Assembly (NCBI GenBank): GCA_964405665.1
Contig: CAYOOT010000004.1
Span: forward strand, 8,053-72,052
Source of the DNA: an uncultured Bdellovibrionales bacterium
GTDB taxonomy: Bacteria > Bdellovibrionota_C > UBA2361 > SZUA-149 > CAZDWZ01
Direction: 5' to 3'
DNA: 64,000 nt
Shown: positions 6,982 through 60,823 of the stretch, in pieces
How the letters are laid out: each line of letters starts with the position of its first letter
Position numbering within the stretch: position 1 is the stretch's first letter
Position numbers and translations under genes: made by a program
Notes under the pieces: model-generated
Databases searched by the model: none
Told to the model about the DNA's origin: nothing
What the model saw: the letters and a program-made list of their open reading frames with translations, nothing else

Positions 6982-8319
6982 CTAGTCAATCACATACTCT
7001 TTCAACTTATTCAACAAAGTCTTATAGCTCACTCCCAAAATTTTTGCTGCCTTAGATTTATTTCCTTTGGTCTGTTGCATAATTGTTAAAATAGCTTTTA
7101 TTTCTGCTTCTTTCGTTGCCAAAGCAGAAATATCATGAAGACTGGGTTGAAACACCTCTTCAAAGTTGGTTTTCTCTAAATTAAAAGCTTCAGGTAAAAG
7201 CTCCTTTGGAGAAAAAATCATTGCTCTTTCAATTGCATTTTCTAACTCTCGGACATTTCCGGGCCAATCATATTGCATTAAAAATTTCAGGGTTTCCTTG
7301 GAAATAATTGGCAAATCTACTTTCAATTCAGCAGCAAGAAGTTTTATGAAATAACTAAGCAATAAAGGAATATCGTCTTTTCTCTCTCTTAATGGAGGAA
7401 TTTCAAAAACCATTACACTTAAACGATAAAATAAATCTGCACGAAATTTGCCACTTTTAATGTCAGATTCTAAATTGGAATTTGTTGCGGAAATGACCCG
7501 AGAATTGATTTTTATTGTAGAATTTCCTCCCACTCTTTTTATTTCAGATTCCTGCAATGTTCTTAAAAGCTTTACCTGCAACTCCAGCGGCATGTTCCCG
7601 ATTTCATCGAGAAAAATTGAACCGTTACTGGATATTTCAAAAAGTCCAATTCTTCTTTCACTTGCTCCGGTAAATGCTCCCGGCTCATAGCCAAAAAACT
7701 CACTTTCTAAAAGATCCTTGGGAGTTGACCCACAATTAACGGCAACAAAAGCTTCTTCCGCCCTAATCCCTTGCTCATGAATAAAACGAGCAAGCATATC
7801 TTTCCCTACTCCGCTTTCTCCGAGAATCAAAACAGGAGTGCTCAGTGAAGCAACTTTTAAAGCCTGCTTCAGTATTCCCTCTAATTTATTATCTTGCGTA
7901 ATTAATCTCCTTTGCACTTTTCTTTTGCGAAGCATTAAATTTCGATCAATTACTCGATGATGCTCAATCACTTGAGCAATCATGTTGCATAAAGCCACAG
8001 GATCAAAAGGCTTAGTAACAAAATCAATTGCGCCATGCTTCATTGCTTGTACAGCAATCGGAATATCGCCATAGGCAGTCATCAAAACAATGGGCACTTT
8101 TTTATTAATCAGCTTGCTATCTTTGATAAAATCTATTCCACTTTTCTGGGGAAGTTTGAGATCGGTTAACACTAAGCTAAATTCATCGGTCTTGAATATA
8201 TCTAGCGCTTCTTCAGCAGAAGAAGTGGAAGTAACTAAATAGCCCTCAGAACTGAGAACTGTAGTGAGCACCTCTCTTAGGGAGTCAGTATCTTCGATTA
8301 AAAGGATATTATTGGACAT
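6982..8319 (-). CDS. Sigma-54-dependent two-component response regulator (NtrC/AtoC family: receiver + AAA+ sigma54-interaction + Fis-type HTH)
   Basis: Receiver LIEDTD...DLKLP. Walker A GESGVGKD, GAFTGA sigma-54 contact motif, C-terminal HTH AAKILGVSYKTLLNKLKEY. Confidence 0.85.
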   Translation of the reverse strand: MSNNILLIEDTDSLREVLTTVLSSEGYLVTSTSSAEEALDIFKTDEFSLVLTDLKLPQKSGIDFIKDSKLINKKVPIVLMTAYGDIPIAVQAMKHGAIDFVTKPFDPVALCNMIAQVIEHHRVIDRNLMLRKRKVQRRLITQDNKLEGILKQALKVASLSTPVLILGESGVGKDMLARFIHEQGIRAEEAFVAVNCGSTPKDLLESEFFGYEPGAFTGASERRIGLFEISSNGSIFLDEIGNMPLELQVKLLRTLQESEIKRVGGNSTIKINSRVISATNSNLESDIKSGKFRADLFYRLSVMVFEIPPLRERKDDIPLLLSYFIKLLAAELKVDLPIISKETLKFLMQYDWPGNVRELENAIERAMIFSPKELLPEAFNLEKTNFEEVFQPSLHDISALATKEAEIKAILTIMQQTKGNKSKAAKILGVSYKTLLNKLKEYVID

Positions 8320-8391
8320 ATCATATGTAACGACAAAAGCTCTGCAGATGTTGAGAGCTTATTTTAGCTTATAACTACTCGGAAAATTTAG

Positions 8392-8853
8392 TTATTTTAG
8401 TAATTTCGAAGCTTCTTGTAATGCTTCTTGATAGATGTTCTTTAAAGGCAAATTAAGTTTATTGGCAACTTCTTCACAACTTATATATTCTGGAGCGATA
8501 TTTAAGATTTTCCCCTGTAAATTTTTTCCCAATTTTACTTTTATCAAGCCATATTTGGTATTTACTTTAACTATTTCTCTTTGTAGTTCATAACGCGTTA
8601 CGGTCTGTCTCCTTAAACCAATTGTTGTTGTTTCTTGGAAAAAAATATCCATTAATTTTTCAACAAAATTTTCTTCACAGAGAGCATGAAGCGTATTTGC
8701 CGGACGTCCATGCTTCATAATTACAGGAGTAATCCAGGCATCTTTGGCTCCGGCAGCTAATAATTTGTTAATTGCATAAGGAAATTGCTCCGGATTCATA
8801 TCATCGATATTGCATTCTAAGAGCTCTAGAGTTATTCTATCGTAATTATTCAT
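8392..8853 (-). CDS. LarC-family (DUF111, nickel-pincer cofactor insertion protein) C-terminal-region homologue, stand-alone 153 aa
   Basis: ECNIDDMNPE...LLAAGAKDAWITPVIMKHGRPANTLHALC...FQETTTIGLRRQTVTRYELQREI resembles the middle/C-terminal part of LarC. No N-terminal part is nearby. Confidence 0.45.
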   Translation of the reverse strand: MNNYDRITLELLECNIDDMNPEQFPYAINKLLAAGAKDAWITPVIMKHGRPANTLHALCEENFVEKLMDIFFQETTTIGLRRQTVTRYELQREIVKVNTKYGLIKVKLGKNLQGKILNIAPEYISCEEVANKLNLPLKNIYQEALQEASKLLK

Positions 8854-8912
8854 TGAATAAATTTTAAAGACATTGGCATTAAATTAATTATTATATTTTT
8901 AAAAGGTTTAAG

Positions 8913-9782
8913 ATGCAAATTCGAAAAGCAGTAATCCCTGCCGCTGGTTTAGGAACACGTTTTTTACCAGCTACCAAAGCCGTTCCCAAAGAACTTTTAC
9001 CAATTGTTGATACGCCGACAGTACAATATATTGTAAAAGAAGCAGTCGATTCTGGAATTGAAGATATTATTTTTGTAACAGGTCGAGGCAAAAATGCCTT
9101 AATCGATCATTTTGATTCGTATCCAGAGCTAGAAGACAAACTCGAAAAAGAAGGGAAATACGATCTTCTTGCCGCCCTTAAAGAAACTTCCAATATGGCA
9201 AAAATAGTATCAGTAAGACAACCGGAACCTAAGGGCTTGGGAGATGCTGTGCTTTGTGCCAAAGATTTAATTGGCGATGAACCTTTTGCTGTTTTATTGG
9301 GCGATGATTTGGTTGATGCAACAGTACCTTGCACGAAACAAATGATTGATGTCTTTAACAAATATAATAAATCAGTTGTTGCACTAATGAGAGTTCCTGA
9401 TGATGAAGTACCGCGTTTTGGGATCTGTGGTGGACACTCTACGGAAGAAAGGGTGTTCATGCTAGACACAATGGTTGAAAAGCCTAGCCTACACGAAGCG
9501 CCCTCAAATCTGGCGATTGTCGGACGTTATATTTTAAAACCATCAATTTTTAAATATTTGCAAGAAACACAAGTCGGTAAAGGTGGCGAATTACAACTCA
9601 CCGATGCCATGGAAAGAATGATGAAAGTAGAAGGATTTATTGGCTATGAGTTTACCGGAAATCGTTATGATGCTGGAGACAAATTTGGCTTTATTCAAGC
9701 TTGCATTGCTTATGGCTTAAAACGTCGAGACATTGCTCCTCGCTTAAAAGCTTATATGGCTGAGCTCGTTGGTCAAAATTAA
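8913..9782 (+). CDS. galU: UTP--glucose-1-phosphate uridylyltransferase
   Basis: MQIRKAVIPAAGLGTRFLPATKAVPKELLPIVD is the canonical GalU N-terminus; length 289 aa. Confidence 0.85.
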   Translation: MQIRKAVIPAAGLGTRFLPATKAVPKELLPIVDTPTVQYIVKEAVDSGIEDIIFVTGRGKNALIDHFDSYPELEDKLEKEGKYDLLAALKETSNMAKIVSVRQPEPKGLGDAVLCAKDLIGDEPFAVLLGDDLVDATVPCTKQMIDVFNKYNKSVVALMRVPDDEVPRFGICGGHSTEERVFMLDTMVEKPSLHEAPSNLAIVGRYILKPSIFKYLQETQVGKGGELQLTDAMERMMKVEGFIGYEFTGNRYDAGDKFGFIQACIAYGLKRRDIAPRLKAYMAELVGQN

Positions 9783-9873: not shown

Positions 9874-12800
9874 TTGGTTGACATACAAAATATTAAAGAA
9901 AAATTTGTCTGGATTCTTAGTGAAACAAAACTTCGTGCCTTTGAAGTAGAACTTTTTCTTAAAAAAAATAATAAAGATGCAGAGTGGCGCTCACTGACAG
10001 TTCTTGATGGCTTAAAAAATATTGCCAGTTCTTTAAATCAAGAAACTCGGACAAATAAACCACAACAAGCAGAACTAATTAATTCTCTGATTCTGGAAGA
10101 GATTTTAAATAATTCTGAATTCCCGGAATTAAAAGAAGAGCTTTCTCTTGTTTTTGAAGAAAGTAATCCAAACTTAAAATTAAAAAATCTCAATTACCTG
10201 CTAACTGCTTTTAGAAATTTTTCCAATGCTTTGCGTATTCAGCAAAATGTCGATTCCGTAATCAAAGAAATCATCGACGAATCGGGAAATACTTTAGAAA
10301 AAAAGCAAAAAATAGCGGAACTTATTCAATTAAGTAATAACCTGAATTTCAAACTAAAAGAGAGAAAAATAACTGACGATATCACCAGTCTTGATAACCT
10401 ATTGCTTGACCTCAACACTTCCAAAAAAACAAATTTAAAATTACCGGAACTGATTATTGTGGACGAGGCCTCCAGTTATTCCAAGCTGGAGCTGGAAATT
10501 CTCTCTCAAATATCAAAATACTGCAAAATAGAACTTTTAATTAAGGAACCTTTTTTGCAAATTGCGGAGCTCAAACAAAAATTCAGCTTTAAAGAACTGC
10601 TAAATTCCCTTCCGCCTTCTAAAAAACATTTTTGCAGTCTTATTTACAACATTAATCGCTACAAGAATCAGCTATCTTTTAAAGAAGTAAAAAACCATAA
10701 TCAAAATGCCGAAAAACTGATTGCTTATTTATTTGATTCCCAGCCGCTGGAAAATAAGGATTACAAATTTAAGCTTCCCTTGGCAATTTGGAAAAACAAA
10801 ACACCCCGCGAAGAAGTAACAAGACTGGCAAAAAGTTTGTCTAATATTTTAAAAAATAACTTGGCTAAACCCGAGGAACTTCATCTAATCTGTCTTGATC
10901 TCGATGAATACCAGCCACTATTTGAAGAAATTTTTACTGAATACCAAATTCCCTTTGTTGTTCCTCGAGGGAAAAGATTAGTAGAAACAACTTTGGGGAA
11001 TTTTTATTTAAGCTATCTTTCCTGGTTTTTTAAACCAACGCTTCTATCCCTGGAAAAACTTTGTCGTGAACCTTTATTTAAGATAAAAGATTTTGATCAG
11101 CCGGCAATTTTTAATTTTATCAGCCTTTGTAAAAATCTAGGCTGCGATAATAATATCTTCTTAGAAGACATTTGGGAAAATTATTTTTTAAGCAGCTTTA
11201 CTAAAAAAGGAGATTCTCAAAGTCTGGCGACAATCAATTGGATCAAATCCGAGTTGACAGAAAACTCAGAATTATTAAGAATTACGGGAAAAGATTTTTT
11301 TAGAAAAATCTTTAGAAAACTAAACCGTTTTCGCTGCAAATTTAAAAAGGGGCTTCTTGCTCAAAACCAAGTTCTCAAGGAAAGAGCCTTTTTGGCCGCT
11401 ACCGCCCAAAAAACAAAAATACTTTTAAAAGAATTAAGTGAAAATACTTATTTTGAAAGCTCCGACTTCAATAAATTGGGGATTGAAAAATCTGTTTTTA
11501 GTGAAAATTTGATTTTAGAAAAACTAAAATCCGAGTTTTTACCTCTGGTCTACGAAGAAGAAAAGATTATTGTTTCTGAAATGCTGGATAGCCGCGGGTT
11601 ATCGGGGAAATTGAATATTGTTTTAGCGCCAAGTTTCGAAAATTTTCCGGCAAAAAATTTAAAACAACAATTCAGCAACGAATATGATGAATTAAGTTAT
11701 AAAATTCAAGAAACAAGCGGAAACAATTCCTCGATCTATGAAAGTTATAGTCTGATTGCTAATTTGATCAGTAACTCCCGGGAGCTTGTTTTTAGTTTTT
11801 CCAGTTTAAGTAAAAATAAAGAAACTAAACCCGCTGATTTTTTATTTTTACTGGCCAAGCAAATTAAAGAAAATAAAAACTTAAATTCTCCGGAAATTTT
11901 AAAGGACTATTCCGTTGAATTTCCAAAAAAATTCAATAATAATCCTGATCAACAAAAATCAATCGAGCAATTACTTTCCAAACAAACAAATTATTTTACA
12001 GCTTACGATAGTTTTATCGGTGCAGAAAGCAGTTCGGAAAAGATCGTTAAACAATTAAATAAAAGATTCCTTCGTTCTTCTGCTGAGCCAGAGGATCAGA
12101 TTGCTCATTATTCCGTATCCTCTTTAGAAACATTTGCCGATTGTCCACAAAAATTCTTTTTTTCCTGTCTTCTCGGCTTGGAGGAGTCGATTGAGCCTGC
12201 AAAAATATTAGCGATCGAAACTGGAAACGTTGTGCATACTTGTCTTAAAAAAATTTTTAGCCTTGATTCTTATAAAACAATTACTGCAGAAAACTTCGGC
12301 CCAGCCTGTAAAGACTTGCTGGAAATCGCGGAAAGGGAATTTGAAAACAATCCTTATGATTGGAACCTTAATTACAAATGGCGGTATGCCAAAAACCTGA
12401 TTATTCAAGGTTTGGATCAAGACAGCGAAACTTCTAAAAGAGGCTATTTAAAAGCGGCACTTTTTTATAACAAACAATTAATTAAAAGTATTCCCGATCA
12501 ACTGGAATGGAATTTCGGTAAAGATTCGGAATCTCCGGCACTCAAAATAATTGAAGATCAACGAGAACTAAGGGTGCTGGGAAAAATTGATCGTATTGAC
12601 CGGACTGATCGCAATAAAAATTCTGAAGTTGCCGCAATTTGGGATTACAAAACAGGTGCAATCACTCCTTACAACAAAGTGGAAAAAGGGAAAAGTCTGC
12701 AAATTCCTTTGTATGCTTTAGCTGTTAAACAAAATATTGCGCCTTATACCTTACCTAAACGCGGAGCTATTTTTAGTTTAAAGCAAACAAACAGAAATGA

Positions 12801-15519
12801 TGAAGATTTGGCTTCATTTCATAAAGGCGTTTTAATGGAGCATTTGGCTATCAGCAGAAAGGGATCCCGCTTAGTCGAGGATTTTTCTGCAGTAGAAAAA
12901 CAATGCCAAAATGTCAAAGAAAATGTTTTAAAACTTGACGCCGCATTAAGAGCCGGAGAATTTCAACAAAAACCTGATAGCGAAGACTGCACTTATTGTA
13001 AATTTAAAAATATTTGTCAAAGAAATGAAACCTTAATTAAGATTAAAAGCAATCATCAAGAAATTAAAAAAGAACAGCGTATTTTCGAAAAAAGCGTTCT
13101 TGAATTTTTAGAGCATGAAAAAAACAATAAGGAACTTATCGCCTTGTCCGCTGAACAAGAAGCGGCCTGTGATATCAATCATAATATTGCTCTGATTGCC
13201 GCTGCCGGTTCCGGGAAAACAACCGTTCTGATCAGAAGAATCATTAAATTGATTTTGGCAGGAGAAAGTATTCTCTCAATTGTTGCAATTACCTATACAG
13301 AAAAAGCTGCAGAAGAAATCAAGCAACGACTGAGTTCGGCAATAAATACAATATTAGAATATAATTCCCTGGCGGGCCAACAAATTACTAACAGTGAAAG
13401 AGAGTTTTTAATTTCAGCAAAAAGTTTGCTGCCTTTAGCTCCGATTGGCACAATTCATTCTTTTGCCGGAATCCTTTTGGGACTTGATCCTTTGATCGCC
13501 AAAAGTCCATTTTCTTTTAAAATTGTTACTGGAGAAGAAAGAAAGAAAATTGCCCAAGCGGCCATTGAAAAAGTTCTTCAAAAAAATCCTAAAAATTTGT
13601 TAATTAAGTTATTAAACTTCGGCCTCTCCTGGAGAAATATCGAATCAGAGCTTGCTCATTTAATGCTTTTACCACGGGATTTATTTGCACTAAATAGAAC
13701 TTACAAGGATCCTCTAATATTAAAAAATATTTTAGAAAAACTGAGTACTGAAACTGAAAACCCGGAACTTAATAAACAAGGGCTGGAAATTGCAGAATGC
13801 TTTTGCGAGCTTGCAGAGTATACTTATCAAAAATACCTGGAGTTAAAGAAGGAAGAAGCTGTGCTGGATTTTGATGATTTGATAATTTCAGCAAAAGAAT
13901 GTTTAAGTAATAATAGTTCAAAACGAATTGCTTTACTTAAAGAAAGAAGCACGAAATTATTTCGACATTTCTTAGTTGATGAGTTTCAAGATACTGATTC
14001 TTATCAATGGGAAATTATTAAAAATATCGCTTCAGAAATTTTCTCTCAGAAAAAAACAAAACCCAAGGAAAATTTAAGGCAAACCATTTTAATTGTCGGC
14101 GATCCTCAACAGGCAATTTATGGATTTAGAGGAGGAGATTCCAGTATTTTTCAACAAGCAATTTCCGAGTTTAAATCAGTAGGCGGTAAATTGCTTTTTC
14201 TGAGAAATAATTATCGTTCGGAAGAAAACCTGATTAATTTTTACAATTCTTACTTTAGTGAGCTGTTTTCCTGCGATTTTTTTGAAGATGCTAGTTCTCG
14301 GGTCAGCACAGCCACTTCTTATGAAGAAATGTATACTTCGCAAAAAAGCGCCGATACTCAAATTAACAATGTCTCATTTCTTTTAAAAGATCCTGAAATG
14401 AATATTGACGAAGCCGCGTATCTTGCTAGTTTTTTAAAAAAATATCTTGCAGAAAACCCTGCTACAGAAAATATTGCTATTCTTTGTCGAAAAAATGATC
14501 ATCTGGAAAAGATTGCCAGTCAATTGGATTTACAAAATATTGATTATAATATCACCCAAAGTAATCGCACTCTGGAATTAAATGAAATTAAGCAATTAGA
14601 AAATTTGCTTAAGTATTTATATAATCCCCAAGATAGTATTGCCTTAGTCGGTCTTTTGCGTTCAACAATTTTTGGTTTTAGCGATCAAGACTTGTTCTTA
14701 TTTTATCAAGAACTGCAGGATTCTTGGGAAATTAAAGAAGAATATCTGAAAACGGCAATATTTCTTAATGCAGCCCAAAAACTGGCTCATTGGAAAAATC
14801 TTAACAAATATCTTAGCGCGTCCGATCTTTTAAAACATATTATCCAAGAACAAAATCTGGAAGATGTTTATCTACAAGCCAATGAAACCGCTGCTTATAA
14901 AAATATCACAATGTTTATCGATACACTTTCTCGTGAAGGAAAAAATGCTCTAGTTGGACCCGCCGTTAGCGATGTCTTAAGTTGGTTAGAATTAAAAAGC
15001 AGTAGTAATTTTCAACTTTTTGTCAATAAAGAAAATCAGAAAATTTCCTTAATGACAATTCACAATGCCAAAGGTTTAGAATTTGATTTAGTAATTCTTG
15101 CCTATATGAATTATCGTTTGCCACCGGAACATGATTTTGTAATTGGTGAATACGCAACAAACAAATTGTTGGGAATAAAAGTTGAAGATGATGAGGATAG
15201 TTTTAGCAGAGCAAAAACTCCTCTACAAAATCTGATTGAGCAATCTTCAACAGCCTTAATTTGTGCTGAAGAAAGACGTTTGTTTTATGTCGCTTGCACC
15301 AGAGCAAAGAAAAGTTTACTTTTCTCTTTTGATCAAAGGAAAGGATTTTTAGGTAATCAAAAAAAGGTAAAGGCACTTTCGCTAAGTAATCGAAAAACAA
15401 ATGCTTTTTTGAAATCCAACCCCTACTATTGGTTTGAACAGCTTCTAGACTATGAAAATCCCTCCTTTACCTTAGCTAACCCCTTGAAAAAACTTAATTT
15501 ACCTGTCATCGAATTATAA
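9874..15519 (+). CDS. Single-chain AddB::AddA-like helicase-nuclease (N-terminal AddB-like inactivated-helicase + RecB-family nuclease with 4-Cys Fe-S site; C-terminal UvrD/AddA-like SF1 helicase without nuclease domain), 1881 aa
   Basis: N-terminal half: IIVDEAS, nuclease motifs DRIDR and IWDYKTG, Cys pattern DCPQKFFFSC ... CTYCKFKNIC (C-x2-C-x5-C as in AddB). C-terminal half: UvrD motifs AAAGSGKTT (I), FLVDEFQDTD (II), IVGDPQQAIYGFRGGD (III), NYRS (IV), TIHNAKGLEFD (V), RRLFYVACTRAK (VI). Continuous ORF across the junction. Start is TTG/GTG-type and uncertain. Confidence 0.6.
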   Translation: MVDIQNIKEKFVWILSETKLRAFEVELFLKKNNKDAEWRSLTVLDGLKNIASSLNQETRTNKPQQAELINSLILEEILNNSEFPELKEELSLVFEESNPNLKLKNLNYLLTAFRNFSNALRIQQNVDSVIKEIIDESGNTLEKKQKIAELIQLSNNLNFKLKERKITDDITSLDNLLLDLNTSKKTNLKLPELIIVDEASSYSKLELEILSQISKYCKIELLIKEPFLQIAELKQKFSFKELLNSLPPSKKHFCSLIYNINRYKNQLSFKEVKNHNQNAEKLIAYLFDSQPLENKDYKFKLPLAIWKNKTPREEVTRLAKSLSNILKNNLAKPEELHLICLDLDEYQPLFEEIFTEYQIPFVVPRGKRLVETTLGNFYLSYLSWFFKPTLLSLEKLCREPLFKIKDFDQPAIFNFISLCKNLGCDNNIFLEDIWENYFLSSFTKKGDSQSLATINWIKSELTENSELLRITGKDFFRKIFRKLNRFRCKFKKGLLAQNQVLKERAFLAATAQKTKILLKELSENTYFESSDFNKLGIEKSVFSENLILEKLKSEFLPLVYEEEKIIVSEMLDSRGLSGKLNIVLAPSFENFPAKNLKQQFSNEYDELSYKIQETSGNNSSIYESYSLIANLISNSRELVFSFSSLSKNKETKPADFLFLLAKQIKENKNLNSPEILKDYSVEFPKKFNNNPDQQKSIEQLLSKQTNYFTAYDSFIGAESSSEKIVKQLNKRFLRSSAEPEDQIAHYSVSSLETFADCPQKFFFSCLLGLEESIEPAKILAIETGNVVHTCLKKIFSLDSYKTITAENFGPACKDLLEIAEREFENNPYDWNLNYKWRYAKNLIIQGLDQDSETSKRGYLKAALFYNKQLIKSIPDQLEWNFGKDSESPALKIIEDQRELRVLGKIDRIDRTDRNKNSEVAAIWDYKTGAITPYNKVEKGKSLQIPLYALAVKQNIAPYTLPKRGAIFSLKQTNRNDEDLASFHKGVLMEHLAISRKGSRLVEDFSAVEKQCQNVKENVLKLDAALRAGEFQQKPDSEDCTYCKFKNICQRNETLIKIKSNHQEIKKEQRIFEKSVLEFLEHEKNNKELIALSAEQEAACDINHNIALIAAAGSGKTTVLIRRIIKLILAGESILSIVAITYTEKAAEEIKQRLSSAINTILEYNSLAGQQITNSEREFLISAKSLLPLAPIGTIHSFAGILLGLDPLIAKSPFSFKIVTGEERKKIAQAAIEKVLQKNPKNLLIKLLNFGLSWRNIESELAHLMLLPRDLFALNRTYKDPLILKNILEKLSTETENPELNKQGLEIAECFCELAEYTYQKYLELKKEEAVLDFDDLIISAKECLSNNSSKRIALLKERSTKLFRHFLVDEFQDTDSYQWEIIKNIASEIFSQKKTKPKENLRQTILIVGDPQQAIYGFRGGDSSIFQQAISEFKSVGGKLLFLRNNYRSEENLINFYNSYFSELFSCDFFEDASSRVSTATSYEEMYTSQKSADTQINNVSFLLKDPEMNIDEAAYLASFLKKYLAENPATENIAILCRKNDHLEKIASQLDLQNIDYNITQSNRTLELNEIKQLENLLKYLYNPQDSIALVGLLRSTIFGFSDQDLFLFYQELQDSWEIKEEYLKTAIFLNAAQKLAHWKNLNKYLSASDLLKHIIQEQNLEDVYLQANETAAYKNITMFIDTLSREGKNALVGPAVSDVLSWLELKSSSNFQLFVNKENQKISLMTIHNAKGLEFDLVILAYMNYRLPPEHDFVIGEYATNKLLGIKVEDDEDSFSRAKTPLQNLIEQSSTALICAEERRLFYVACTRAKKSLLFSFDQRKGFLGNQKKVKALSLSNRKTNAFLKSNPYYWFEQLLDYENPSFTLANPLKKLNLPVIEL

Positions 15520-15604
15520 AGGTATCTTTTTTATTTTTTATCACCATAACAGAAGTAGAATGTAATCTGAATGGGATTATTATTTATAGATTATGGAGAA
15601 CACT

Positions 15605-15982
15605 ATGTTTACAAAAATTAAAAAAATATACAGTTCAGTTTGCTTAAAAAGTTTGGAATTAGTCCATGCACACTCTAGCTTATTAATGTTTTTAATAGGT
15701 GTTGGATTTTTGAATGCTGGAATGAATGAATTAGCTCATGCTCAGGTTCCCACTGGGGCAACTGGACCACTGATCGCCAGTGCCAGAGCAACACTAGCAT
15801 GTGGTTTCATACTTTCCTATCTGGAAGGCGGGTTTGGTGCATTGCTTGCCGCCGGTGCAGGAATTGGAGCAGTAGTCGCTTCCGCTCTTGGTGGGTTTAA
15901 AGCAGCATGGTGTTTAGTTGTAGTTTCTGTCGGAGCTTTTATTCTAAGATCATACATCACTTTATTTAATGGAGTATGTTAA
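15605..15982 (+). CDS. VirB2/TrbC-like T-pilin paralogue 1 (small 2-TM secreted membrane protein)
   Basis: ORF 15593..15982; ATG at 15605 preferred (GGAG 6 nt upstream). Signal peptide ending AHA|Q, Gly-rich start, conserved Cys then GGFGALL...SALGGF...AWCLVVVSVGAFIL, C-terminal Cys. Pattern parallels Agrobacterium VirB2 (ASA|QSAGGG...ICTFILGPFG...). Confidence 0.5.
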   Translation: MFTKIKKIYSSVCLKSLELVHAHSSLLMFLIGVGFLNAGMNELAHAQVPTGATGPLIASARATLACGFILSYLEGGFGALLAAGAGIGAVVASALGGFKAAWCLVVVSVGAFILRSYITLFNGVC

Positions 15983-15995
15983 TAAAGGTTTGACC

Positions 15996-16340
15996 ATGTC
16001 AATTAAATCAAAATGGCTTCATAATTTTTTATTTTTTGTTACCGTTTTAATCTTATTAATCGTATCGCAAGAATTTGCTTTGGCTCAAGCTGCCGGTGGC
16101 GGTGGCACAGAAGGCTATGATGATAGTAAATTTGGCGTAGCCTGTATTAGTGCTCTTAATTATCTGCAAGGAGGCTTTGGAGCATTGCTTTCAGCAATAG
16201 CAGGCTTTGCTGCAGTAATCGCTTCCGCAATGGGAGGATTTAGAATGGCTTGGGGCCTCCTTATCGTATCTATCGGATCGTTTATCCTGCAAGAATATAT
16301 GGAAATTTGGTTTGGAACATCAGCTTGTGTAGGTAGTTAA
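15996..16340 (+). CDS. VirB2/TrbC-like T-pilin paralogue 2
   Basis: ORF 15969..16340; start MSIKSKW at 15996 preferred (AAAGG upstream). Signal ALA|QAAGGGGTEG; core ACISALNYLQGGFGALLSAIAGFAAVIASAMGGF; C-terminal Cys. Confidence 0.5.
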   Translation: MSIKSKWLHNFLFFVTVLILLIVSQEFALAQAAGGGGTEGYDDSKFGVACISALNYLQGGFGALLSAIAGFAAVIASAMGGFRMAWGLLIVSIGSFILQEYMEIWFGTSACVGS

Positions 16341-16702
16341 TGAATAAGATTGCTGTTAAGATAATTTTTATTGCAGAATCCCTTCAGGAATTCACAAAAA
16401 AAAATTCCGATCTAATTCTTATTTTTCTTGGCATATTAATTCTCAGTGGTGGTTTGCTTGATGTTTCTTTCGCACAAACCGGCGGAGAAGTTTTTAAAAG
16501 TGCCGCTTCCAATATCGCTTGCAAAGTAATAACCGGGAAATTTGGCGCAATGTTAACTATTTTTTCCGGAATATTTGCCATTGTTGCAGCAGCTACTGGT
16601 TCCTATAAAGGCGCCTGGGCCTTGCTCTTTGTTTCTATTGGAGCTTTTATTTTTAAAGAATTCGTCTCGATTTTATTCAGCGGGTCGATAGCATGTACAT
16701 AA
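16340..16702 (+). CDS. VirB2/TrbC-like T-pilin paralogue 3
   Basis: Start overlaps stop of paralogue 2 (TAATG). Signal SFA|QTGGEV; core IACKVITGKFGAMLTIFSGIFAIVAAATG; C-terminal IACT. Confidence 0.5.
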   Translation: MNKIAVKIIFIAESLQEFTKKNSDLILIFLGILILSGGLLDVSFAQTGGEVFKSAASNIACKVITGKFGAMLTIFSGIFAIVAAATGSYKGAWALLFVSIGAFIFKEFVSILFSGSIACT

Positions 16703-17196
16703 AGAAAGATAAATATTTTTTTGAAATTTTACTGTTAATGTCAATATTAAGTTTATTGCCTTCAATAGCTTATGCTCAAGAAGGAGGAGGAACTGCTGCT
16801 GCTGGATTTGATACCAGTGTAATTGATTGGGCGATTGAAGAACTATGTGGACACATCACAGGAAATCTTGGTGGCTTACTGGTAACTGTAGCAGCTTTCG
16901 GCGCAATAGTTTCAGCAGCTCTTGGTTCATTTAGAGTAACTTATAGTGCAATAATTGTTGCCGTTGGTGCTTATGCGATCAGTTCAATTGAAAGTTTGTA
17001 TTTTCCTAGCGCGGCAACTGTTTGTGCCTCAGGAGCTTCTGCCGATGTTGACGGAGGAGATGCCGGACCCGCTACAGGAGGACCAGTTGCACCCCCGAGA
17101 TTGTCTACTTCTGCTCAACAAACGGCTGTTTCAGAGAGAAATACTTTATATAAAGACAAAGTTGAAGAAAACGATCCTTTTGCAAAATTAGATTAA
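16693..17196 (+). CDS. VirB2/TrbC-like T-pilin paralogue 4 with Gly/Pro-rich C-terminal extension
   Basis: Start overlaps end of paralogue 3. Signal AYA|QEGGGTAAAG; core ELCGHITGNLGGLLVTVAAFGAIVSAALGSF; extra ~55-aa tail ASGASADVDGGDAGPATGGPVAPP... Confidence 0.45.
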   Translation: MYIKKDKYFFEILLLMSILSLLPSIAYAQEGGGTAAAGFDTSVIDWAIEELCGHITGNLGGLLVTVAAFGAIVSAALGSFRVTYSAIIVAVGAYAISSIESLYFPSAATVCASGASADVDGGDAGPATGGPVAPPRLSTSAQQTAVSERNTLYKDKVEENDPFAKLD

Positions 17197-17200
17197 ATCA

Positions 17201-17563
17201 ATGTCCAGGTATAATTTTAAATTTTTTATTGGCGCTACTCTTAGTTTATTTTCCTTTCTTTTTGTATTCCTAAATTTCGCCTTAGCTGATGCCTTTGAAG
17301 AACTGGGAGCTTATTCCAGTCAAGGCTTGGCGGGAGGAAGTGCAGGTTTTGCTGATGGTGCATTCAAAGAAGCAATTTGCGATATTGTTGGTTTAATGGG
17401 TAATGAGTTGGGGGGATTTTTAACTGCTTCAGCTTTATTAATGGCTTTGGTCTATGCCGCTGTTGGTGGCTTATCGCAAACCACAGCGGCAGTTATTGTT
17501 GCTGTTTCCGCTTTTTCTTTAACTTCGATTGTTAGTTTGTATTTCGGGAGTTTTAGTTGCTAA
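17201..17563 (+). CDS. VirB2/TrbC-like T-pilin paralogue 5 (most divergent)
   Basis: Signal-like N-terminus ending ALADA; core AICDIVGLMGNELGGFLTASALLMALVYAAVGG; C-terminal SFSC. Stop TAA is supplied by the family-B MITE terminus. Confidence 0.45.
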   Translation: MSRYNFKFFIGATLSLFSFLFVFLNFALADAFEELGAYSSQGLAGGSAGFADGAFKEAICDIVGLMGNELGGFLTASALLMALVYAAVGGLSQTTAAVIVAVSAFSLTSIVSLYFGSFSC

Positions 17564-17636
17564 TTCTCCCCTTTTTCGCACATCAAACTATAAATAGTAC
17601 TAGAATATATGCAGCGTGCGAAAAAGGGGAGAATTA
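17561..17636. repeat. Palindromic MITE-like element, family B, copy 2
   Basis: TAATTCTCCCCTTTTTCGCACATCAAACTATAAATAGTACTAGAATATATGCAGCGTGCGAAAAAGGGGAGAATTA. Its two TAA termini are the stop codons of the + strand pilin gene and the - strand SNF2 gene. Confidence 0.8.
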
Positions 17637-20105
17637 CCTCACCGCCTTAATAAACTCCTCTCTTTCTATCTCTAAAGACTCTTCCAAAATTCCTTCCATT
17701 TTTAATACTTCATTTTGAAACCTTGTCTTGCGATTCAAATTCCTGGCAATCAATTCATCAACCTTGCTCGCCTGTAAAGAAATAATTCTAACCGTTCCTG
17801 TTTGGCCAATCCTATGCAAACGATCAATTGATTGCATCCAATGCTCGGCATTCCATGTTTTATCGAGATAAATTGCAGTTTGAGCGGCGGTCAGCGTGAT
17901 TCCCACACCACCGGCAGCAGGAACAGCTACTAATATTTTTACTTCATTGGAATTTTGAAATTTTTTTATTGTTTCATCCCGTTCTTTTGTGGAAACTTCT
18001 CCGGAAAATGCCTTGGCTCCATACTTTTCGTAACGTTTTGTCAGTTCCCGAATATTTCCCAAATAATTTGTCCAGATTACTAGCTTTTCTTCTCTTTCAG
18101 AAACAATATCTTCCACTAATAAATCCAATTCTTTGAATTTTGCCGGTTCTCCTTTCCAAGTTTCATCAATCAATCTGGGGTTAGAGGCCACCTGAACGGC
18201 TCTTAAATATTCTTCCAGAATATTGTTAATTTCTCGGATAAAAGTTTTACCATTGGTAGAAGTAACCCTTAACAAAAGCTCTTTCCTGATTTCTTCGTAG
18301 CGCTTGCGTTGTTCTCCAGTTAAATCAATATCTCTGGTAATAAATATTTTCTCCGGTAAATCCACAACATCTTCTTTTTTTCTGCGCAGTAAAACCTCAT
18401 GCAGCCGAGAAATAGTTTCTTTAATCATTTGCGGCTTAAACTTTTTTACAGCAAAATCGCTATATTTTGTTCCCAGTTCCGCTACTTGTTCCAACCAACG
18501 ATAGTAACTTTTTCCAAATCTCTCTCCACCATCTAACAAATACATTTGTGACCAGATATCAGAAATATCTTTCGGCGTGGGAGTTCCACTAAGTAATACT
18601 CGGCGCTGACAAAGCGGCGCAAGCTGAGAAATAGCCTGAAAAGTCTGAGCATTGGGACTTTTTACGCGTTGTGATTCGTCAAGGCATAACAAAGTGTTTT
18701 TGGTTTGCAGTAAATCTATTATCTCCGGTAAAACATAATCCAGTCTGATTGCTTCGTAATTAATTACCAGACCATTTATTTTATAATCGCCCCAGGAAAG
18801 CTTTTTCAAAAAACTGATTTTCTCCTTTTTTTCTTGGGGCAACATCAACAGACGTAATTCTGGAAACCAATTTGCTGCTTCTCGCAACCAATTCCTGGTT
18901 AAGGAATTAGGACAAATTACCAAGAGAAAATCGCTTTGTGCTGTTTTTTGTAGGGCAACAAAAGAGCTAAGCACACTTAATGTTTTTCCTAATCCCATAT
19001 CGTCTCCCAAAAACGAAAATGGAGTTTCCAATAGCCATTTCATTGCCACTCGTTGATGAGGGTATAATCTTTGTTCTAAGCTTTGATCTGAGAAAATAGA
19101 CTGATTCAAATTGACATCTTTTAGTGCATTAAAATGCTTCGATCTCTCTAAAAGCAATTGTTGCGCTTCTCTTTCCTTGGCTGAAATTTCGGCAAAAGCT
19201 TCACCTCTTTGGCGGATCATTTCTTGCACTTTGTCACTTAACCAAAGCTTCCATTTCAAATCTTTTAGTCTTTGCACAACTTTAAACAAAGTATTTTGAT
19301 CAAACATTTTTGCAAGATTTTTTCGTTGATCAAAGGAAGAAATGTTAGGGAAAATTTCTCTTAGCTGTGTTGTCGTATAATTTTTTAAGCAAAAATATGT
19401 TTCACTGCCGCTTTCATCGAAATAGTCTAAAACTTCAATGAAGGGACAAAGTAAAGCTGCACTTAAATTATTTTCATTAATAATTGTTTCCTGGTTTAAA
19501 ATCTCCGCTCTTAATTTGGCACTGGCACTTAAAATTTTACCAGCAGTGGCTTCTACTGCAAAAAGTAAATTCAGATCTCTTAGTTTTTTTAAAAGTGCAG
19601 TTAATTCTTCCGTAGGTAGAAAATAAGATTTTTCCGTTTTGATATAATGTGCTCCCGGAATTTTTTCTAAAATTTTTCTGGCCTTAGAGCTAAAACTAGG
19701 GAGTGCCCGCAATGACGTCTGTTTGAAATCCAATCTGATTACTAAATCCAGCCTTAAATTTTTAAGATCCTCTTCAGCAACAGAAAATGGATTTTCTTTA
19801 ACTCGAGAAAGAATCTCTTCTAAATCAACTTTTTCCGATTTTAGTTCAATCGGCAGATCTTCAGCAGAAAAACTATAAACTAAATTATCCCTGCTAAATG
19901 ATTTGGAATTTTCCAAATAAGAACAATTTTTAAGCTGAACAGTCCAATGCTTTCTTTCTTTATTAAAACGGGCTGAGGGTATTTTTTTTATTTCCTGTAC
20001 TTTGTCAGGGGAATAAGAAAATTCAACTATTAACTGATCTCCAGAAAGAGACACTTGACCCAGAGGCTGATTATATGATTTCTCTTGTCTATGATTAATA
20101 CCCAT
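17634..20105 (-). CDS. SNF2/RapA-family DEAD-like helicase (uncharacterised ~330-aa N-terminal region + SNF2 ATPase + helicase-C)
   Basis: LGDDMGLGKT (Walker A), LCLDESQRVKSP (DExx box), helicase-C block ...GGVGITLTAAQTAIYLDKTWN...QSIDRLHRIGQ (motif VI). Confidence 0.8.
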   Translation of the reverse strand: MGINHRQEKSYNQPLGQVSLSGDQLIVEFSYSPDKVQEIKKIPSARFNKERKHWTVQLKNCSYLENSKSFSRDNLVYSFSAEDLPIELKSEKVDLEEILSRVKENPFSVAEEDLKNLRLDLVIRLDFKQTSLRALPSFSSKARKILEKIPGAHYIKTEKSYFLPTEELTALLKKLRDLNLLFAVEATAGKILSASAKLRAEILNQETIINENNLSAALLCPFIEVLDYFDESGSETYFCLKNYTTTQLREIFPNISSFDQRKNLAKMFDQNTLFKVVQRLKDLKWKLWLSDKVQEMIRQRGEAFAEISAKEREAQQLLLERSKHFNALKDVNLNQSIFSDQSLEQRLYPHQRVAMKWLLETPFSFLGDDMGLGKTLSVLSSFVALQKTAQSDFLLVICPNSLTRNWLREAANWFPELRLLMLPQEKKEKISFLKKLSWGDYKINGLVINYEAIRLDYVLPEIIDLLQTKNTLLCLDESQRVKSPNAQTFQAISQLAPLCQRRVLLSGTPTPKDISDIWSQMYLLDGGERFGKSYYRWLEQVAELGTKYSDFAVKKFKPQMIKETISRLHEVLLRRKKEDVVDLPEKIFITRDIDLTGEQRKRYEEIRKELLLRVTSTNGKTFIREINNILEEYLRAVQVASNPRLIDETWKGEPAKFKELDLLVEDIVSEREEKLVIWTNYLGNIRELTKRYEKYGAKAFSGEVSTKERDETIKKFQNSNEVKILVAVPAAGGVGITLTAAQTAIYLDKTWNAEHWMQSIDRLHRIGQTGTVRIISLQASKVDELIARNLNRKTRFQNEVLKMEGILEESLEIEREEFIKAVR

Positions 20106-49707: not shown

Positions 49708-51378
49708 TTAATTAAAAAAATTCTTACGATAACATTCTTCGCAGAGAATAATATTTTCTTTATTTGCTAAAACAGAATTAAACGTTACCTGACATTGTGA
49801 ACATTCTGTTTCAGCAATCGATAGGGGGCGCGTTTGATTGATTCGCTGATCATGCCTGCAAAAGAAACATTTTTTTGGAGCAGGCGTTTGAAGTTTACGA
49901 TATAAATTCAATTCGGCCTTAGTAATTCTATAGTTTCTGGAACATTTTTCGCAGGAGAACAATTCATTAACGATTTCATCTTTAGTCTGGGCTATTGTAT
50001 CGGGAATAATTGCCGAAGTAATAAGATATTCATCAGAGTTTTTATCTTTCCATTTGTAACAGCTTTTCTTTGCTTCTTCTTCAGTAAGTGGATGCAATTG
50101 ATTAGCCAAAGTTTCGTTATAAGCAAAAGGAGAAATATGAGCCGGAAAAAAATTACCCCACTCTTTTGTCTCTTGTAAATGAGCAATAATTTTTGGAAGT
50201 AATTTTTGATATTCTTCTTTTGAGTATTGTTTATTCAAAATACAATACTGCTGTTTTTTCATTCCCGAACAGCCAAAAAGATTTTTACTGTAAAAAGAAT
50301 TAACTGAATAAGAAACTTCCTGGCTGTACCAAACCAAAAAACTAAAAATCACTCGATAATTTTTTTCTAGATTTGTACTAAAGTATTGCAATTCGGAATT
50401 ATCAAAACAATTTGCATCAAAACAATCCTTATTACCATCTCCCAAATAGCAATAAGCACAATCTTCGGAGTTCTTTAAAGAATACGCAGCAAAACTATTT
50501 TTGCAGTTAAATAGCATATCGCCAAAAGAATTTTCGCAATTAGTAATTAAAGAGCCTCTTTTTGCCTGTTGAAAATAAAAATTATGAAATTGAGTGAATA
50601 TCTCTTTTTGCTTACTAAGATTTAAAAAATCTTCCCGCAGGCTTTTAATTTGCAAATGATATTCTTCTTTGCTTAGTTGCTGATTATAAATACAATATTG
50701 CGAATTATGAAGATTTACACAGCCAAAACAATCTCTGCAACTGTAACAATAGGCACAAAGTGTTAGATTGGAAGAGTTCTGACAATATTCACAATTCAAA
50801 CAAGAATAAAGATTTTCAGACTGAATACAATCTTTACAAAGTTCACATTTATAAACATCAAAACAATCCACTGAATCTTTGGAATAAAAAATCCTGTAAC
50901 TATAGTAACAATCTTCTGCTCCTAAACCGCCAACAACCATATAACAATTTTTATTTTCAGAGGAATAGTTCGTATATTCAGAATTTTCACTTTTCGAATT
51001 TTGAATGGCCACTTTCGGAACTCTTAAATTAAGTTCAGCAAATTGTTCAAAAAAAGTTTTTGAAAAATCAAACGGTTGACCATAAGATAAGGGATCATAT
51101 TGATCACTCCACCAAACATTTTGATCATATACTTGATAAGTAGAATCAGGGGAATAAACTGATATTAAATTTTTTCCGGAAAAATCACATTTTCTTTTAT
51201 AAAAAGAGAATTCATTGCGAAAAGCTAATCGGGATTTTTGCCGGCAATTGGGGCATAATTTAGGAAGTGGTAACTGATAGGAAATAGAATCGAGGACAGG
51301 AGAAACTTTTTTGATGAATTCAATCTCTTCTTTTCGAATTAAAAAATTTTTATTGCATTCTAAGCAGACTGAATTCAT
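49708..51378 (-). CDS. Cysteine-rich repeat protein, paralogue 1 (~556 aa, ~10% Cys)
   Basis: ORF 49708..51384 (TTG); ATG MNSVCLEC preferred. N-terminal CxxC...CPNC, conserved WWSDQYD...FDFSKTFFEQF block, central run of C-x2-C-x2-C repeats (CAYCYSCRDCFGCVNL...), C-terminal CEKC...CFFC. Confidence 0.5.
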   Translation of the reverse strand: MNSVCLECNKNFLIRKEEIEFIKKVSPVLDSISYQLPLPKLCPNCRQKSRLAFRNEFSFYKRKCDFSGKNLISVYSPDSTYQVYDQNVWWSDQYDPLSYGQPFDFSKTFFEQFAELNLRVPKVAIQNSKSENSEYTNYSSENKNCYMVVGGLGAEDCYYSYRIFYSKDSVDCFDVYKCELCKDCIQSENLYSCLNCEYCQNSSNLTLCAYCYSCRDCFGCVNLHNSQYCIYNQQLSKEEYHLQIKSLREDFLNLSKQKEIFTQFHNFYFQQAKRGSLITNCENSFGDMLFNCKNSFAAYSLKNSEDCAYCYLGDGNKDCFDANCFDNSELQYFSTNLEKNYRVIFSFLVWYSQEVSYSVNSFYSKNLFGCSGMKKQQYCILNKQYSKEEYQKLLPKIIAHLQETKEWGNFFPAHISPFAYNETLANQLHPLTEEEAKKSCYKWKDKNSDEYLITSAIIPDTIAQTKDEIVNELFSCEKCSRNYRITKAELNLYRKLQTPAPKKCFFCRHDQRINQTRPLSIAETECSQCQVTFNSVLANKENIILCEECYRKNFFN

Positions 51379-51471
51379 ATACAATTATAACAATTTTGGA
51401 ATAATATAGCATATCTTTTAAATAATAATATTCTGTTATATAGTTTAATTCTTTAATAAACGGAGTTAATC

Positions 51472-52086: not shown

Positions 52087-52632
52087 TTGCCTGATAAAAA
52101 TCAAAAAGGAAATAATTATATGGATGATCTATATGTCAATTTATTAAGTGCGATACTGGGTGCTTTTGCCAGCGGTCTTTTTGGCATTATTTCGGAAAAA
52201 AGCCGCCATCGCCAAGAAGTGCTCAGTATTGCCAATGCTTTTTATGGCGAAGTCAAGGCAATTTTAGAAAAAGTAGAACGTAGAGGATATATACAAATTC
52301 TTCGTCAAGCGGAGAAAGACAAAAAATTTATTCATATTGATGCCAAGCAAAATTATTTTGAAGTATTTGCAAATAACTGCGAACGGATTGGCCTCGTTCC
52401 CGCTGATTTGACTTTTGAAATCACAAAATTTTATATTTTTGCCAAAGCCTTTGTAGAAGATACTGATAGTTATTGTTCCTTGAGCGCACAAAACATCAAT
52501 AATTCTGCAAATTATACTGAGATGGCCGACATTCTAGAAGAAATTAGAAGTACCGGAAATAAAATTATTGAAAAAGTTGAAACAATGAATGGCACTGAAA
52601 AAAGACGGTCAAAACTTTTTAGTTTTTCTTAA
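52087..52632 (+). CDS. Hypothetical protein (181 aa)
   Basis: ORF starting 1 nt after msrA stop; N-terminal hydrophobic segment LLSAILGAFASGLFGII. Confidence 0.3.
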   Translation: MPDKNQKGNNYMDDLYVNLLSAILGAFASGLFGIISEKSRHRQEVLSIANAFYGEVKAILEKVERRGYIQILRQAEKDKKFIHIDAKQNYFEVFANNCERIGLVPADLTFEITKFYIFAKAFVEDTDSYCSLSAQNINNSANYTEMADILEEIRSTGNKIIEKVETMNGTEKRRSKLFSFS

Positions 52633-52642
52633 TATTAAATTT

Positions 52643-60817: not shown

Positions 60818-60823
60818 TTTAAC

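Follow-up and report, generated by a model that had tools for sequence, protein, structure and literature searches.

The 1881-aa protein encoded in the window (the whole 64-kb stretch of DNA analysed) is probably a single-polypeptide AddAB-type enzyme that resects double-strand-break ends. Residues 1-1049 form a complete AddB, with an inactivated helicase fold and a RecB-family nuclease, and a partly disordered linker of ~40 residues connects this part to the AddA part. The AddA part, comprising the last 790 residues, is an SF1A motor resembling AddA that contains all the ATPase and translocation motifs and no nuclease domain. The ORF listing and the translation gave one unbroken ORF at 9874..15519 (+) with zero internal stops, and every motif named in the original prediction was found where expected in the translation. 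Pfam ordered the domains as PDDEXK_1 (746-1049), UvrD-helicase (1094-1433, 7e-49) and UvrD_C (1443-1819, 4e-40). Proteins of this family are currently named only "UvrD-helicase domain-containing protein" in the databases; a natural AddA/AddB fusion was sought in the literature with no relevant result, and a paper on the present protein was not found. The features identified, all on the + strand, were as follows:

9874..15519 (+), whole gene, AddB::AddA single-chain helicase-nuclease of 1881 aa; start codon TTG, stop codon at 15517-15519
9874..12108 (+), AddB-type inactivated SF1-helicase-like module, aa 1-745, without a Walker A; the AlphaFold2 (AF2) model of the N-terminal half matches AddB over its full length
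10453..10473 (+), IIVDEAS, aa 194-200, at most a relic of helicase motif II (30-member alignment)
12109..13020 (+), RecB-family (PDDEXK_1) nuclease of the AddB type, aa 746-1049 (Pfam PF12705, 1.2e-31)
12142..12144 (+), C757 (in DCPQKFFF), first ligand of a predicted 4Fe-4S 'iron staple'; Cys in 27/30 members
12505..12714 (+), catalytic residues E878, D906, D924, K926, Q943 and Y947, invariant in 30/30 members
12988..13017 (+), C1039-x2-C1042-x5-C1048 (CTYCKFKNIC, aa 1039-1048), predicted remaining three Fe-S ligands (motif and alignment)
13021..13143 (+), junction or linker from the AddB C-terminus to the AddA N-terminus, aa 1050-1090 (spacing, pLDDT and conservation)
13144..15330 (+), AddA-like SF1A (UvrD-type) motor with domains 1A/1B/2A/2B, aa 1091-1819 (Pfam and Foldseek)
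13207-13221 (+), Walker A GSGKT, aa 1112-1116 (motif scan)
13978-13992 (+), DEFQD, aa 1369-1373 (motif scan)
14098-14112 (+), motif III GDPQQ, aa 1409-1413 (motif scan)
15277-15306 (+), motif VI RLFYVACTRA, aa 1802-1811 (motif scan)
15331..15516 (+), short folded C-terminal tail, aa 1820-1881, where AddA has a linker and a nuclease (AF2 pLDDT)

Domain composition of the fusion protein

We assigned the N-terminal half by sequence and by structure. A PDB sequence search with this half had B. subtilis AddB as its sole match, colinear over three segments, and among the NCBIfam models only addB_Gpos (7.7e-22) and addB_alphas matched. The five top Foldseek matches of the AF2 model of this half (pLDDT 83.9, pTM 0.73) were AddB chains, aligned over their full length (E 1.5e-27, ~1200 aligned columns); RecC (4.6e-19) and then AdnA (8.5e-16) followed. 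These PDB, NCBIfam and Foldseek matches support the earlier assignment of the half to AddB rather than to Cas4 or another PD-(D/E)XK family. The scores fell short of the AddB equivalog cutoffs, with 76.8 vs 903.7 bits for TIGR02773 and 25.6 vs 486.5 bits for TIGR02786. The AF2 models cover pieces of the 1881-aa chain, and an AddA-AddB-like contact between the dead helicase and the motor within one chain is a prediction.

The counterpart of the aa 1-745 module in AddB is the Chi-scanning channel for the 3' strand. A motif scan for Walker A (G.GK[TS]) found none in aa 1-1085, and GSGKT at 1112-1116 was the only one in the whole protein. The original prediction had read IIVDEAS as a degenerate motif II; the sequence is indeed present, but a conserved DE motif is not, since across the family alignment the D occurs in 18/30 members and the E in only 3/30, with Q in place of the E in 15/30. 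Judged from these columns, it may be a motif II relic at most. All conservation counts given here refer to the 30-member family alignment, in which the members align from their residue 1 on at the N-terminal 'W-x-L-x-E-T-x-x-R'. Linker aside, the aa 1-745 module showed the lowest conservation in the family (~19-20% identity), and the nuclease and helicase regions the highest (~35% identity each).

In the nuclease, D906 lies within DRIDR, and D924 and K926 within IWDYKTG. The active site of B. subtilis AddB consists of E915/D944/D961/K963/Q981/Y985 (PMC3321194), and the six residues listed above have the same spacing; motifs I-III and the QxxxY pattern are all present. The complete set of four cysteines (C757, C1039, C1042 and C1048) was found in 25/30 members; among the five members short of cysteines, three have lost all four jointly and two have lost two or three. 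From their sequence pattern, the four cysteines are predicted to form an AddB-type iron staple that binds a 4Fe-4S cluster.

For the C-terminal half, the best NCBIfam models were addA_Gpos (1.6e-59) and addA_alphas (6.4e-57), with recB, pcrA and uvrD ranking lower, and Foldseek placed AddA chains at ranks 1-4 (3.9e-30), then RecB (3.4e-27), then UvrD/PcrA. The claim of an AddA-like half with motifs I-VI was thus borne out by both searches, and the key motor residues in these motifs were invariant in 30/30 members. The likeness to AddA exceeds that to RecB or UvrD by a modest margin only, and the AddA equivalog cutoffs were missed (201.8 vs 707.65 bits for TIGR02785 and 193.7 vs 860.75 bits for TIGR02784). 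The model of the nuclease plus the motor was compact, with a pTM of 0.83.

The protein ends 70 residues past the end of motif VI and 62 residues past the Pfam UvrD_C match; the early end noted previously was therefore correct, and the figure is 70 rather than ~80 residues. The tail (aa 1820-1881) had a pLDDT of ~90 for the most part, falling over the final residues, and contained helices and strands. As predicted, the C-terminal nuclease of AddA is absent, since Pfam found no further PDDEXK_1 in the 1881 aa and a tail of 62 aa leaves no room for such a domain.

The junction and the family

The linker (aa 1050-1090) is the least conserved part of the protein, being 45% identical to that of P0001 and 15% identical across the family, and aa 1064/1066-1085 had a pLDDT below 50 in both AF2 models. 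P0001 is a syntenic orthologue, 66% identical, from an independent Logan assembly, and the frame was preserved through its junction despite a 3-nt indel and many substitutions. Twenty-eight distant relatives from NCBI, JGI, ENA and Logan are fused in the same order, and in 25/30 members 62-78 aa separate the last cysteine from the Walker A lysine. We conclude that the fusion is genuine and old and has been conserved within a family because P0001 is in frame and the 28 same-order relatives conserve the junction spacing; the continuity of the ORF over the junction that had been claimed from a single sequence is therefore confirmed. The possibility that the fusion arose in sequencing or assembly, or is a recent pseudo-fusion, and that addB and a shortened addA are really separate genes, is already effectively refuted by the in-frame orthologue and the distant relatives, and both remaining frames are packed with stops at nt 12900-13200. 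We found nothing in favour of it and regard its probability as vanishingly small; the linker is AT-rich and contains short runs of A.

The family was retrieved by an exhaustive representative search. It comprises 28 full-length cluster representatives of 1711-2445 aa with the same B-to-A order, whose MAG labels are Bdellovibrionota, Deltaproteobacteria or Proteobacteria. Word-indexed protein searches with the N-terminal half or the 30-member alignment did not return the family, and a scan of a genome collection yielded only an unrelated Bacteroidetes UvrD-like locus. The window protein is thus one member of an existing, unstudied family of ~28 similar proteins from uncultured Bdellovibrionota-like bacteria, and the uniqueness of a B-A fusion implied by the original prediction was overstated, as fusions of the opposite order also exist.

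C-terminal tails of 45-100 aa were found in 28/30 members. The two exceptions, P0058 (2445 aa) and P0071 (2121 aa), have the order, junction and motifs of the window protein, which has neither of their extensions. The C-terminal extension of P0058 contains a RecB-type nuclease of ~330 aa that is apparently intact and has a separate C...CxxCx5C motif, and the tail of the window protein aligns with the beginning of the P0058 linker that continues into this second nuclease. The C-terminal domain of P0071 is degenerate; its cysteines are kept, and a D-x-K pattern search gave no second match. An apparently intact second nuclease in one member and a degenerate one in the other fit a secondary loss. 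The midpoint-rooted NJ tree of the family is star-like, groups P0058 and P0071 in a single clade and does not polarise loss versus gain. A likely origin would be a read-through fusion of adjacent addB and addA genes, after which the nuclease of AddA was lost.

Relation to known systems and genomic neighbourhood

The best structural match of both halves was B. subtilis AddAB (PDB 3U44, 3U4Q and 4CEH-4CEJ). The present protein shares with it one SF1A motor, a dead helicase fold and a RecB-family nuclease with the four cysteines of a predicted iron staple, and the addB-addA gene order equals the domain order found here. It differs in being one polypeptide instead of an AddA/AddB heterodimer, and in missing the C-terminal nuclease of AddA, which cuts the 3' strand and sits on an extended linker. 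B. subtilis AddB also has a Walker A, which has been linked to the stability of the Chi complex (PMC3321194); the present AddB-like part has none. Identity to AddAB is just 15-20%, and the scores against the curated AddA and AddB models lie far below the cutoffs.

Like RecBCD, the protein has a single nuclease overall, its N-terminal half resembling the dead helicase of RecC and its C-terminal half the SF1A motor of RecB. In RecBCD, however, the nuclease resides on the motor subunit RecB and the nuclease-like domain of RecC is inactive, an arrangement that is reversed here. RecBCD also consists of three polypeptides, with RecD as a second motor of the SF1B type, whereas the 64-kb window contains no RecD-like ORF and no separate addA or recBCD. 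A Cloacimonetes MAG encodes another single chain (P0003, 1973 aa) that likewise combines an AddA-like motor with an AddB-like, putative Fe-S nuclease. It has the order A then B, retains both nucleases (DYK at 1061 and near 1880) and is only 28% identical over the helicase, and represents a separate fusion event. Thermus thermophilus AddA is listed at 857 aa (PMC11143384, PMC9751324), a length that hints at another nuclease-less AddA.

The fusion gene sits in a core chromosomal neighbourhood. The synteny of a sigma54 response regulator, galU and the fusion is common to a Bdellovibrionota MAG and a 664-kb JGI contig, and parAB lies near the locus in relatives. GalU is 82% identical in the syntenic relatives, and the fusion protein diverges much faster than its neighbours. 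In alpha-proteobacteria, addB is preceded by murU; the idea of a murU-addB synteny was dropped since galU occupies the upstream position here (364 bits with the GalU model vs a cutoff of 326.8). A nuclease split off downstream was also considered and rejected, as the five ORFs at 15593-17563 encode small TrbC/VirB2-like membrane proteins. A scan for promoters and terminators around the gene found no more sites than expected by chance, and Rfam gave zero matches over the whole window.

Mechanism, alternative readings and significance

The steps proposed here are modelled on the mechanism of B. subtilis AddAB (PMC3321194). The two parts of the single chain would pack together as AddA and AddB do in their heterodimer, and the protein would bind a duplex end. 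The C-terminal motor would draw the 3'-ended strand 3'->5' through the dead-helicase channel, while the 5'-ended strand would be delivered to the predicted Fe-S nuclease and cut there. The 3' strand would be left uncut because the nuclease that cuts it in AddAB, that of AddA, is absent, and a long 3' single-stranded tail would be made from the start; Chi-triggered protection of the 3' strand would therefore be unnecessary. By this analogy, we infer that cutting of the 5' strand only, independently of Chi, is the most likely function. The AddB-type dead helicase module is present in all 30 aligned members, and since every member retains it though Chi protection seems unnecessary, it may still regulate something.

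The same retention in 30/30 members would suit an enzyme that is Chi-regulated, its dead helicase module still scanning for a Chi-like sequence, or that cuts both strands, either with its one nuclease reaching both, as that of RecB does in RecBCD, or with the 3' strand cut by a nuclease encoded elsewhere. RecBCD works with one nuclease, the strand exits of AddAB lie close together (PMC3321194), and an AddA-type or other 3'-strand nuclease, or RecBCD, may be encoded beyond the 64-kb window searched. Against this, the surviving nuclease is the one at the exit of the 5' channel in AddAB (PMC3321194), the dead helicase module evolves fastest within the protein, and neither the window nor the conserved synteny contains a candidate partner nuclease. 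We consider a Chi-regulated or two-strand-cutting version of the enzyme unlikely.

A role in anti-phage defence, as a helicase-nuclease like Gabija GajB or the UvrD-Cas4-like fusions and not a repair enzyme, appears highly improbable. The helicase half does match the PADLOC models RTasHel (146 bits) and GajB (133 bits), but these matches cover the generic UvrD core alone and score below addA_Gpos (201.8 bits). GajB stands beside GajA in Gabija, whereas the neighbours here are galU and the TrbC-like ORFs, and neither GajA nor a restriction-modification partner is present. The UvrD-Cas4-like fusions described by Hudaiberdiev et al. 2017 are ~1000 aa long, have the helicase first and the nuclease last, and often occur in defence contexts (PMC5704561). 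As in the present protein, a UvrD-type SF1A helicase is covalently joined to a PF12705 nuclease, which is of the Fe-S type there and predicted to be so here, but they have no dead helicase module, and the order of dead helicase, nuclease and live helicase found here is that of AddB then AddA. An SNF2 helicase resembling ZorD/DpdE, encoded on the opposite strand ~2 kb downstream, and the rapid divergence of the fusion protein would suit a defence function, whereas the core-chromosome surroundings, syntenic in relatives, speak against it. There is scarcely any likelihood that the protein is a Dna2/Bad-like or AdnAB-like enzyme instead of an AddAB derivative. In Dna2/Bad, too, the helicase is preceded by a nuclease, one of the Fe-S type (PMC7430649), but that helicase is of the SF1B (5'->3') type and the present one is a UvrD/AddA SF1A helicase; moreover, Dna2 was missing from the top 50 Foldseek matches. 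AdnA was among the structural matches, yet AddB was well ahead of it. AdnAB has ATPase motifs and a nuclease in both halves, whereas here the N-terminal half has no Walker A, unlike AdnA, and the C-terminal half has no nuclease.

Returning to the AddAB-type resector, we offer more tentatively, and with some doubt, the reading that the family as a whole is a Chi-independent one-polypeptide resector, comparable to an AddAB fixed in an AddA-nuclease-dead state, that it is the main break-end processor of a Bdellovibrionota-like lineage, and that its fast-evolving dead helicase no longer scans for Chi but has taken on another task, such as RecA loading, end recognition or evasion of phage inhibitors.

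AddAB and RecBCD are multi-subunit enzymes, and Chi can regulate them only because they have a nuclease acting on the 3' strand. A one-chain version that is conserved in nature and lacks the 3'-strand nuclease suggests that the core job is feasible with one motor and one nuclease. With one gene and one polypeptide, it would be handy for structural and single-molecule study of AddAB-type enzymes, and the members with an intact or decaying second nuclease provide a series for tracing how a dual-nuclease enzyme is simplified. The ~28 clusters that now bear a generic helicase name could receive a specific functional one, and the prediction for their hosts is a lineage that would need no Chi control of the 3' strand.

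The fusion ORF and the identity of its halves

We translated the fusion gene and examined the motifs and junction of the original prediction. All of the motifs were found at the places given. The ORF was also continuous across the junction, as had been claimed; one reading frame passed through it without an internal stop, and the remaining two frames were packed with stops at nt 12900-13200, the proposed junction.

Features of the fusion
Window 9874-15519, + strand: single ORF, 1881 codons, TTG start, 0 internal stops
aa 194-200: IIVDEAS
DCPQKFFF, containing C757
DRIDR, containing D906
IWDYKTG, containing D924 and K926
aa 1039-1048: CTYCKFKNIC
aa 1112-1116: Walker A GSGKT, the sole Walker A in the protein
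aa 1369-1373: DEFQD
aa 1409-1413: GDPQQ
aa 1802-1811: motif VI
aa 746-1049: PDDEXK_1 (Pfam, 1.2e-31)
aa 1094-1433: UvrD-helicase (Pfam, 7e-49)
aa 1443-1819: UvrD_C (Pfam, 4e-40)

The N-terminal half had been predicted to be AddB-like, and HMM, PDB sequence and Foldseek comparisons all favored AddB. Among PDB sequences, aa 1-1085 matched B. subtilis AddB alone (3u44_B, E 4e-05), and the match consisted of three colinear stretches. NCBIfam returned addB_Gpos (7.7e-22, aa 607-948) and addB_alphas (3e-06) and no others, both far under their equivalog cutoffs. An AlphaFold2 model made from an alignment of 37 sequences had a mean pLDDT of 83.9 and a pTM of 0.73. When this model was searched against the PDB by Foldseek, ranks 1-5 were AddB chains (E 1.5e-27 to 4e-27; ~1200 columns, TM ~0.53), followed by RecC (4.6e-19), AdnA (8.5e-16), AddA chains (~6e-14) and UvrD (~1e-11). 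The nuclease active site of B. subtilis AddB consists of E915/D944/D961/K963/Q981/Y985 (PMC3321194). The equivalents in the fusion, E878/D906/D924/K926/Q943/Y947, had near-identical spacing and were invariant in 30 aligned family members. A motif search found no Walker A in the N half, and E198 of IIVDEAS was replaced by Q in half of the family; judged from the alignment, this motif is at most a relic. By sequence and predicted structure, the N half was shown to be a complete AddB with an intact nuclease.

For the C-terminal half (aa 1086-1881), the top NCBIfam models were addA_Gpos (1.6e-59) and addA_alphas (6.4e-57), then recB (8.7e-52), pcrA (8.7e-48) and uvrD (2.4e-45), every one under its cutoff. 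The top match of the whole protein among PDB sequences was AddA (3u44_A, 1.6e-25). Foldseek with an AF2 model of aa 700-1881 (pLDDT 87.5, pTM 0.83) placed four AddA chains in the lead (3.9e-30 to 2e-28) and thereafter RecB (~3e-27), UvrD/PcrA/Rep (~1e-25) and AdnB (~5e-21). These methods agreed with the predicted AddA-like character and are consistent with a C half closer to AddA than to RecB or UvrD, by a modest margin. The AddA nuclease was missing, as predicted: a Pfam search of the 1881-aa protein gave no second nuclease domain, and 62 residues remained after the helicase. In the model this 62-aa tail was folded and the linker at aa 1066-1085 was disordered. The motor residues examined were invariant throughout the family. 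A flexible ~40-aa linker was shown to join the AddB part to an intact AddA-type motor without a nuclease.

Relative to most family members, the window protein was short by ~110 residues in the segment from Walker A to motif II, a piece of the 1B 'arm'. We also noted an AAGGA (window 13129-13146) 9 nt before an in-frame TTG (L1091) at the exact start of the AddA-like part. This could be what remains of the ribosome-binding site and start codon of an ancestral addA, or it could serve as an internal start; the arrangement was not conserved in the closest relative.

Reality of the fusion and its family

Orthologue comparison indicated that the fusion is genuine. The closest relative, P0001 (1869 aa, Logan assembly of SRR22388058), was 66-67% identical across 99% of the length, and its contig had the same order as the window (LarC-C fragment, NTP-transferase, fusion, small ORF). 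Since the P0001 junction stayed in frame despite many substitutions and one 3-nt indel, this sequence comparison rules out a sequencing-induced fusion as a general explanation. The LarC fragment of the window (8392-8853, - strand, 153 aa) matched only the final third of LarC, a nickel-insertion protein (profile positions 242-375 of 375), and was similarly short in the relative.

When 1.84 billion cluster representatives were searched exhaustively by HMMER with aa 1-1085, 31 matches had E <= 1e-30. Among the top 32 matches listed, 28 were 1711-2445 aa long, and the query covered their N-terminal ~1100 residues. Motif mapping gave a common layout of dead helicase, D-Y-K nuclease, CxxCx5C, Walker A, DEFQD and motif VI. 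The last Cys lay 62-78 residues before the Walker A lysine in 25 of the 30 aligned members, and the C-terminal tail was just 45-100 residues long in 28 of the 30. The sources were MAGs labelled Bdellovibrionota, Deltaproteobacteria or Proteobacteria/Pseudomonadota bacterium, and the names, where given, were 'UvrD-helicase domain-containing protein' or 'ATP-dependent helicase/nuclease subunit A'. Of 20 clusters checked for size, 19 had a single member and one had two.

P0058 (2445 aa; L005 4204-11541, GCA_024278345.1) had a C-terminal domain of ~330 aa, apparently an intact second Fe-S nuclease of RecB type, in which DFK, QLRAY and a further C...CxxCx5C were present. P0071 (2121 aa) retained the cysteines of its C-terminal extension, and a pattern search for a second D-x-K gave no match. 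These sequences fit a two-nuclease fusion that arose first and lost its C-terminal nuclease later, with P0058 and P0071 as possible intermediates; the family tree (NJ, midpoint-rooted) was too star-like to prove the direction.

The iron staple (C757, C1039, C1042, C1048) had its full set of cysteines in 25/30 members. All four were replaced in P0049, P0061 and P0065 (3/30), and two or three were gone in P0055 and P0062, while the nuclease catalytic residues were retained in each of these proteins. The pattern is as would be expected if the four cysteines formed one ligand set, and it suggests that the predicted Fe-S cluster was lost repeatedly and in a coordinated way.

Genomic neighborhood

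Upstream of the fusion were galU (TIGR01099, 364 bits versus a cutoff of 326.8) and a sigma54 response regulator in divergent orientation. The same galU/sigma54/fusion arrangement was found in a Bdellovibrionota MAG (L004; GCA_046328905.1, 1.87-Mb contig) and on a 664-kb JGI contig (L006), with parA-parB immediately upstream in both. We compared the window proteins (fusion, 9874-15519; neighbors, 6982-9782 and 59978-62552) with those of both loci.

Identity of window proteins to L004/L006
GalU: 82-83%
ParA: about 80%
ParB: 66-69%
Sigma54 response regulator: 61-64%
Fusion protein: 29-36%

Because the fusion was 29-36% identical and its neighbors 61-83%, it diverges far faster than they do at an unchanged chromosomal position. 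Its fastest-changing parts were the dead-helicase module and the linker. The context is core-chromosome and housekeeping-type, and the source is most likely a Bdellovibrionota-like bacterium of about 35% GC. The family HMM found no other UvrD/RecB-like ORF within the 64-kb window. PADLOC gave generic UvrD-core matches only (RTasHel 146 bits, GajB 133 bits), both scoring below the AddA models, and no adjacent defense partner genes.

Directly downstream were five tandem paralogous small ORFs (15593-17563, + strand; 129, 123, 120, 167 and 120 aa), each with a signal-like N-terminus and two Gly/Ala-rich transmembrane helices and, except for the 167-aa one, a Cys at or near the C-terminus. They had zero Pfam or NCBIfam matches; their sequences resemble TrbC/VirB2-type pilins. 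They were kept one-to-one in L006 (16129-18093), where one had a weak Pfam TrbC match, and a related region occurred in L002, the locus of P0001 (7841-8212). An 823-aa SNF2-family helicase (17634-20105, - strand) was most similar in PADLOC to ZorD and DpdE, and no further defense-system components were noticed near it. Large ORFs of 558, 516 and 1042 aa (49708-57431) had no Pfam match at 1e-5.

Relation to known enzymes and proposed mechanism

By analogy, the fusion would work like AddAB, from which it is clearly derived. It departs from that two-subunit, dual-nuclease enzyme in three defining respects: it is one chain in place of separate subunits, it lacks the AddA nuclease, and it scored under the cutoffs of the curated AddA and AddB models. 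RecBCD, AdnAB, Dna2/Bad, Gabija and the described UvrD-Cas4-like fusion were each rejected as its identity by membership tests. P0003 (1973 aa; L003 10001-15922, Cloacimonetes MAG GCA_018645365.1) is an independent AddA::AddB fusion in which the order is reversed, the A part preceding the B part, and neither nuclease is missing (helicase 11-847, D-Y-K nuclease ~1061, second Fe-S nuclease 1683-1967). Full-text literature searches turned up no account of AddB and AddA fused in nature, and an earlier mention may exist. The fusion is a real, conserved, uncharacterised variant of AddAB.

In AddAB, AddA moves 3'->5' along the 3'-ended strand, which threads the dead-helicase (Chi-recognition) channel of AddB to the AddA nuclease and is protected by Chi binding, and the Fe-S nuclease of AddB receives the 5' strand (PMC3321194). 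We propose that the single chain would fold into the AddAB arrangement and that its one motor would unwind DNA starting at a duplex end, with degradation limited to the 5' strand. The main uncertainties are that the retained dead-helicase module may still regulate something and that another nuclease may act in trans. If the fusion enzyme acts as proposed, degradation of the 5' strand alone would generate a 3' tail constitutively, and Chi-dependent attenuation would therefore be unnecessary.
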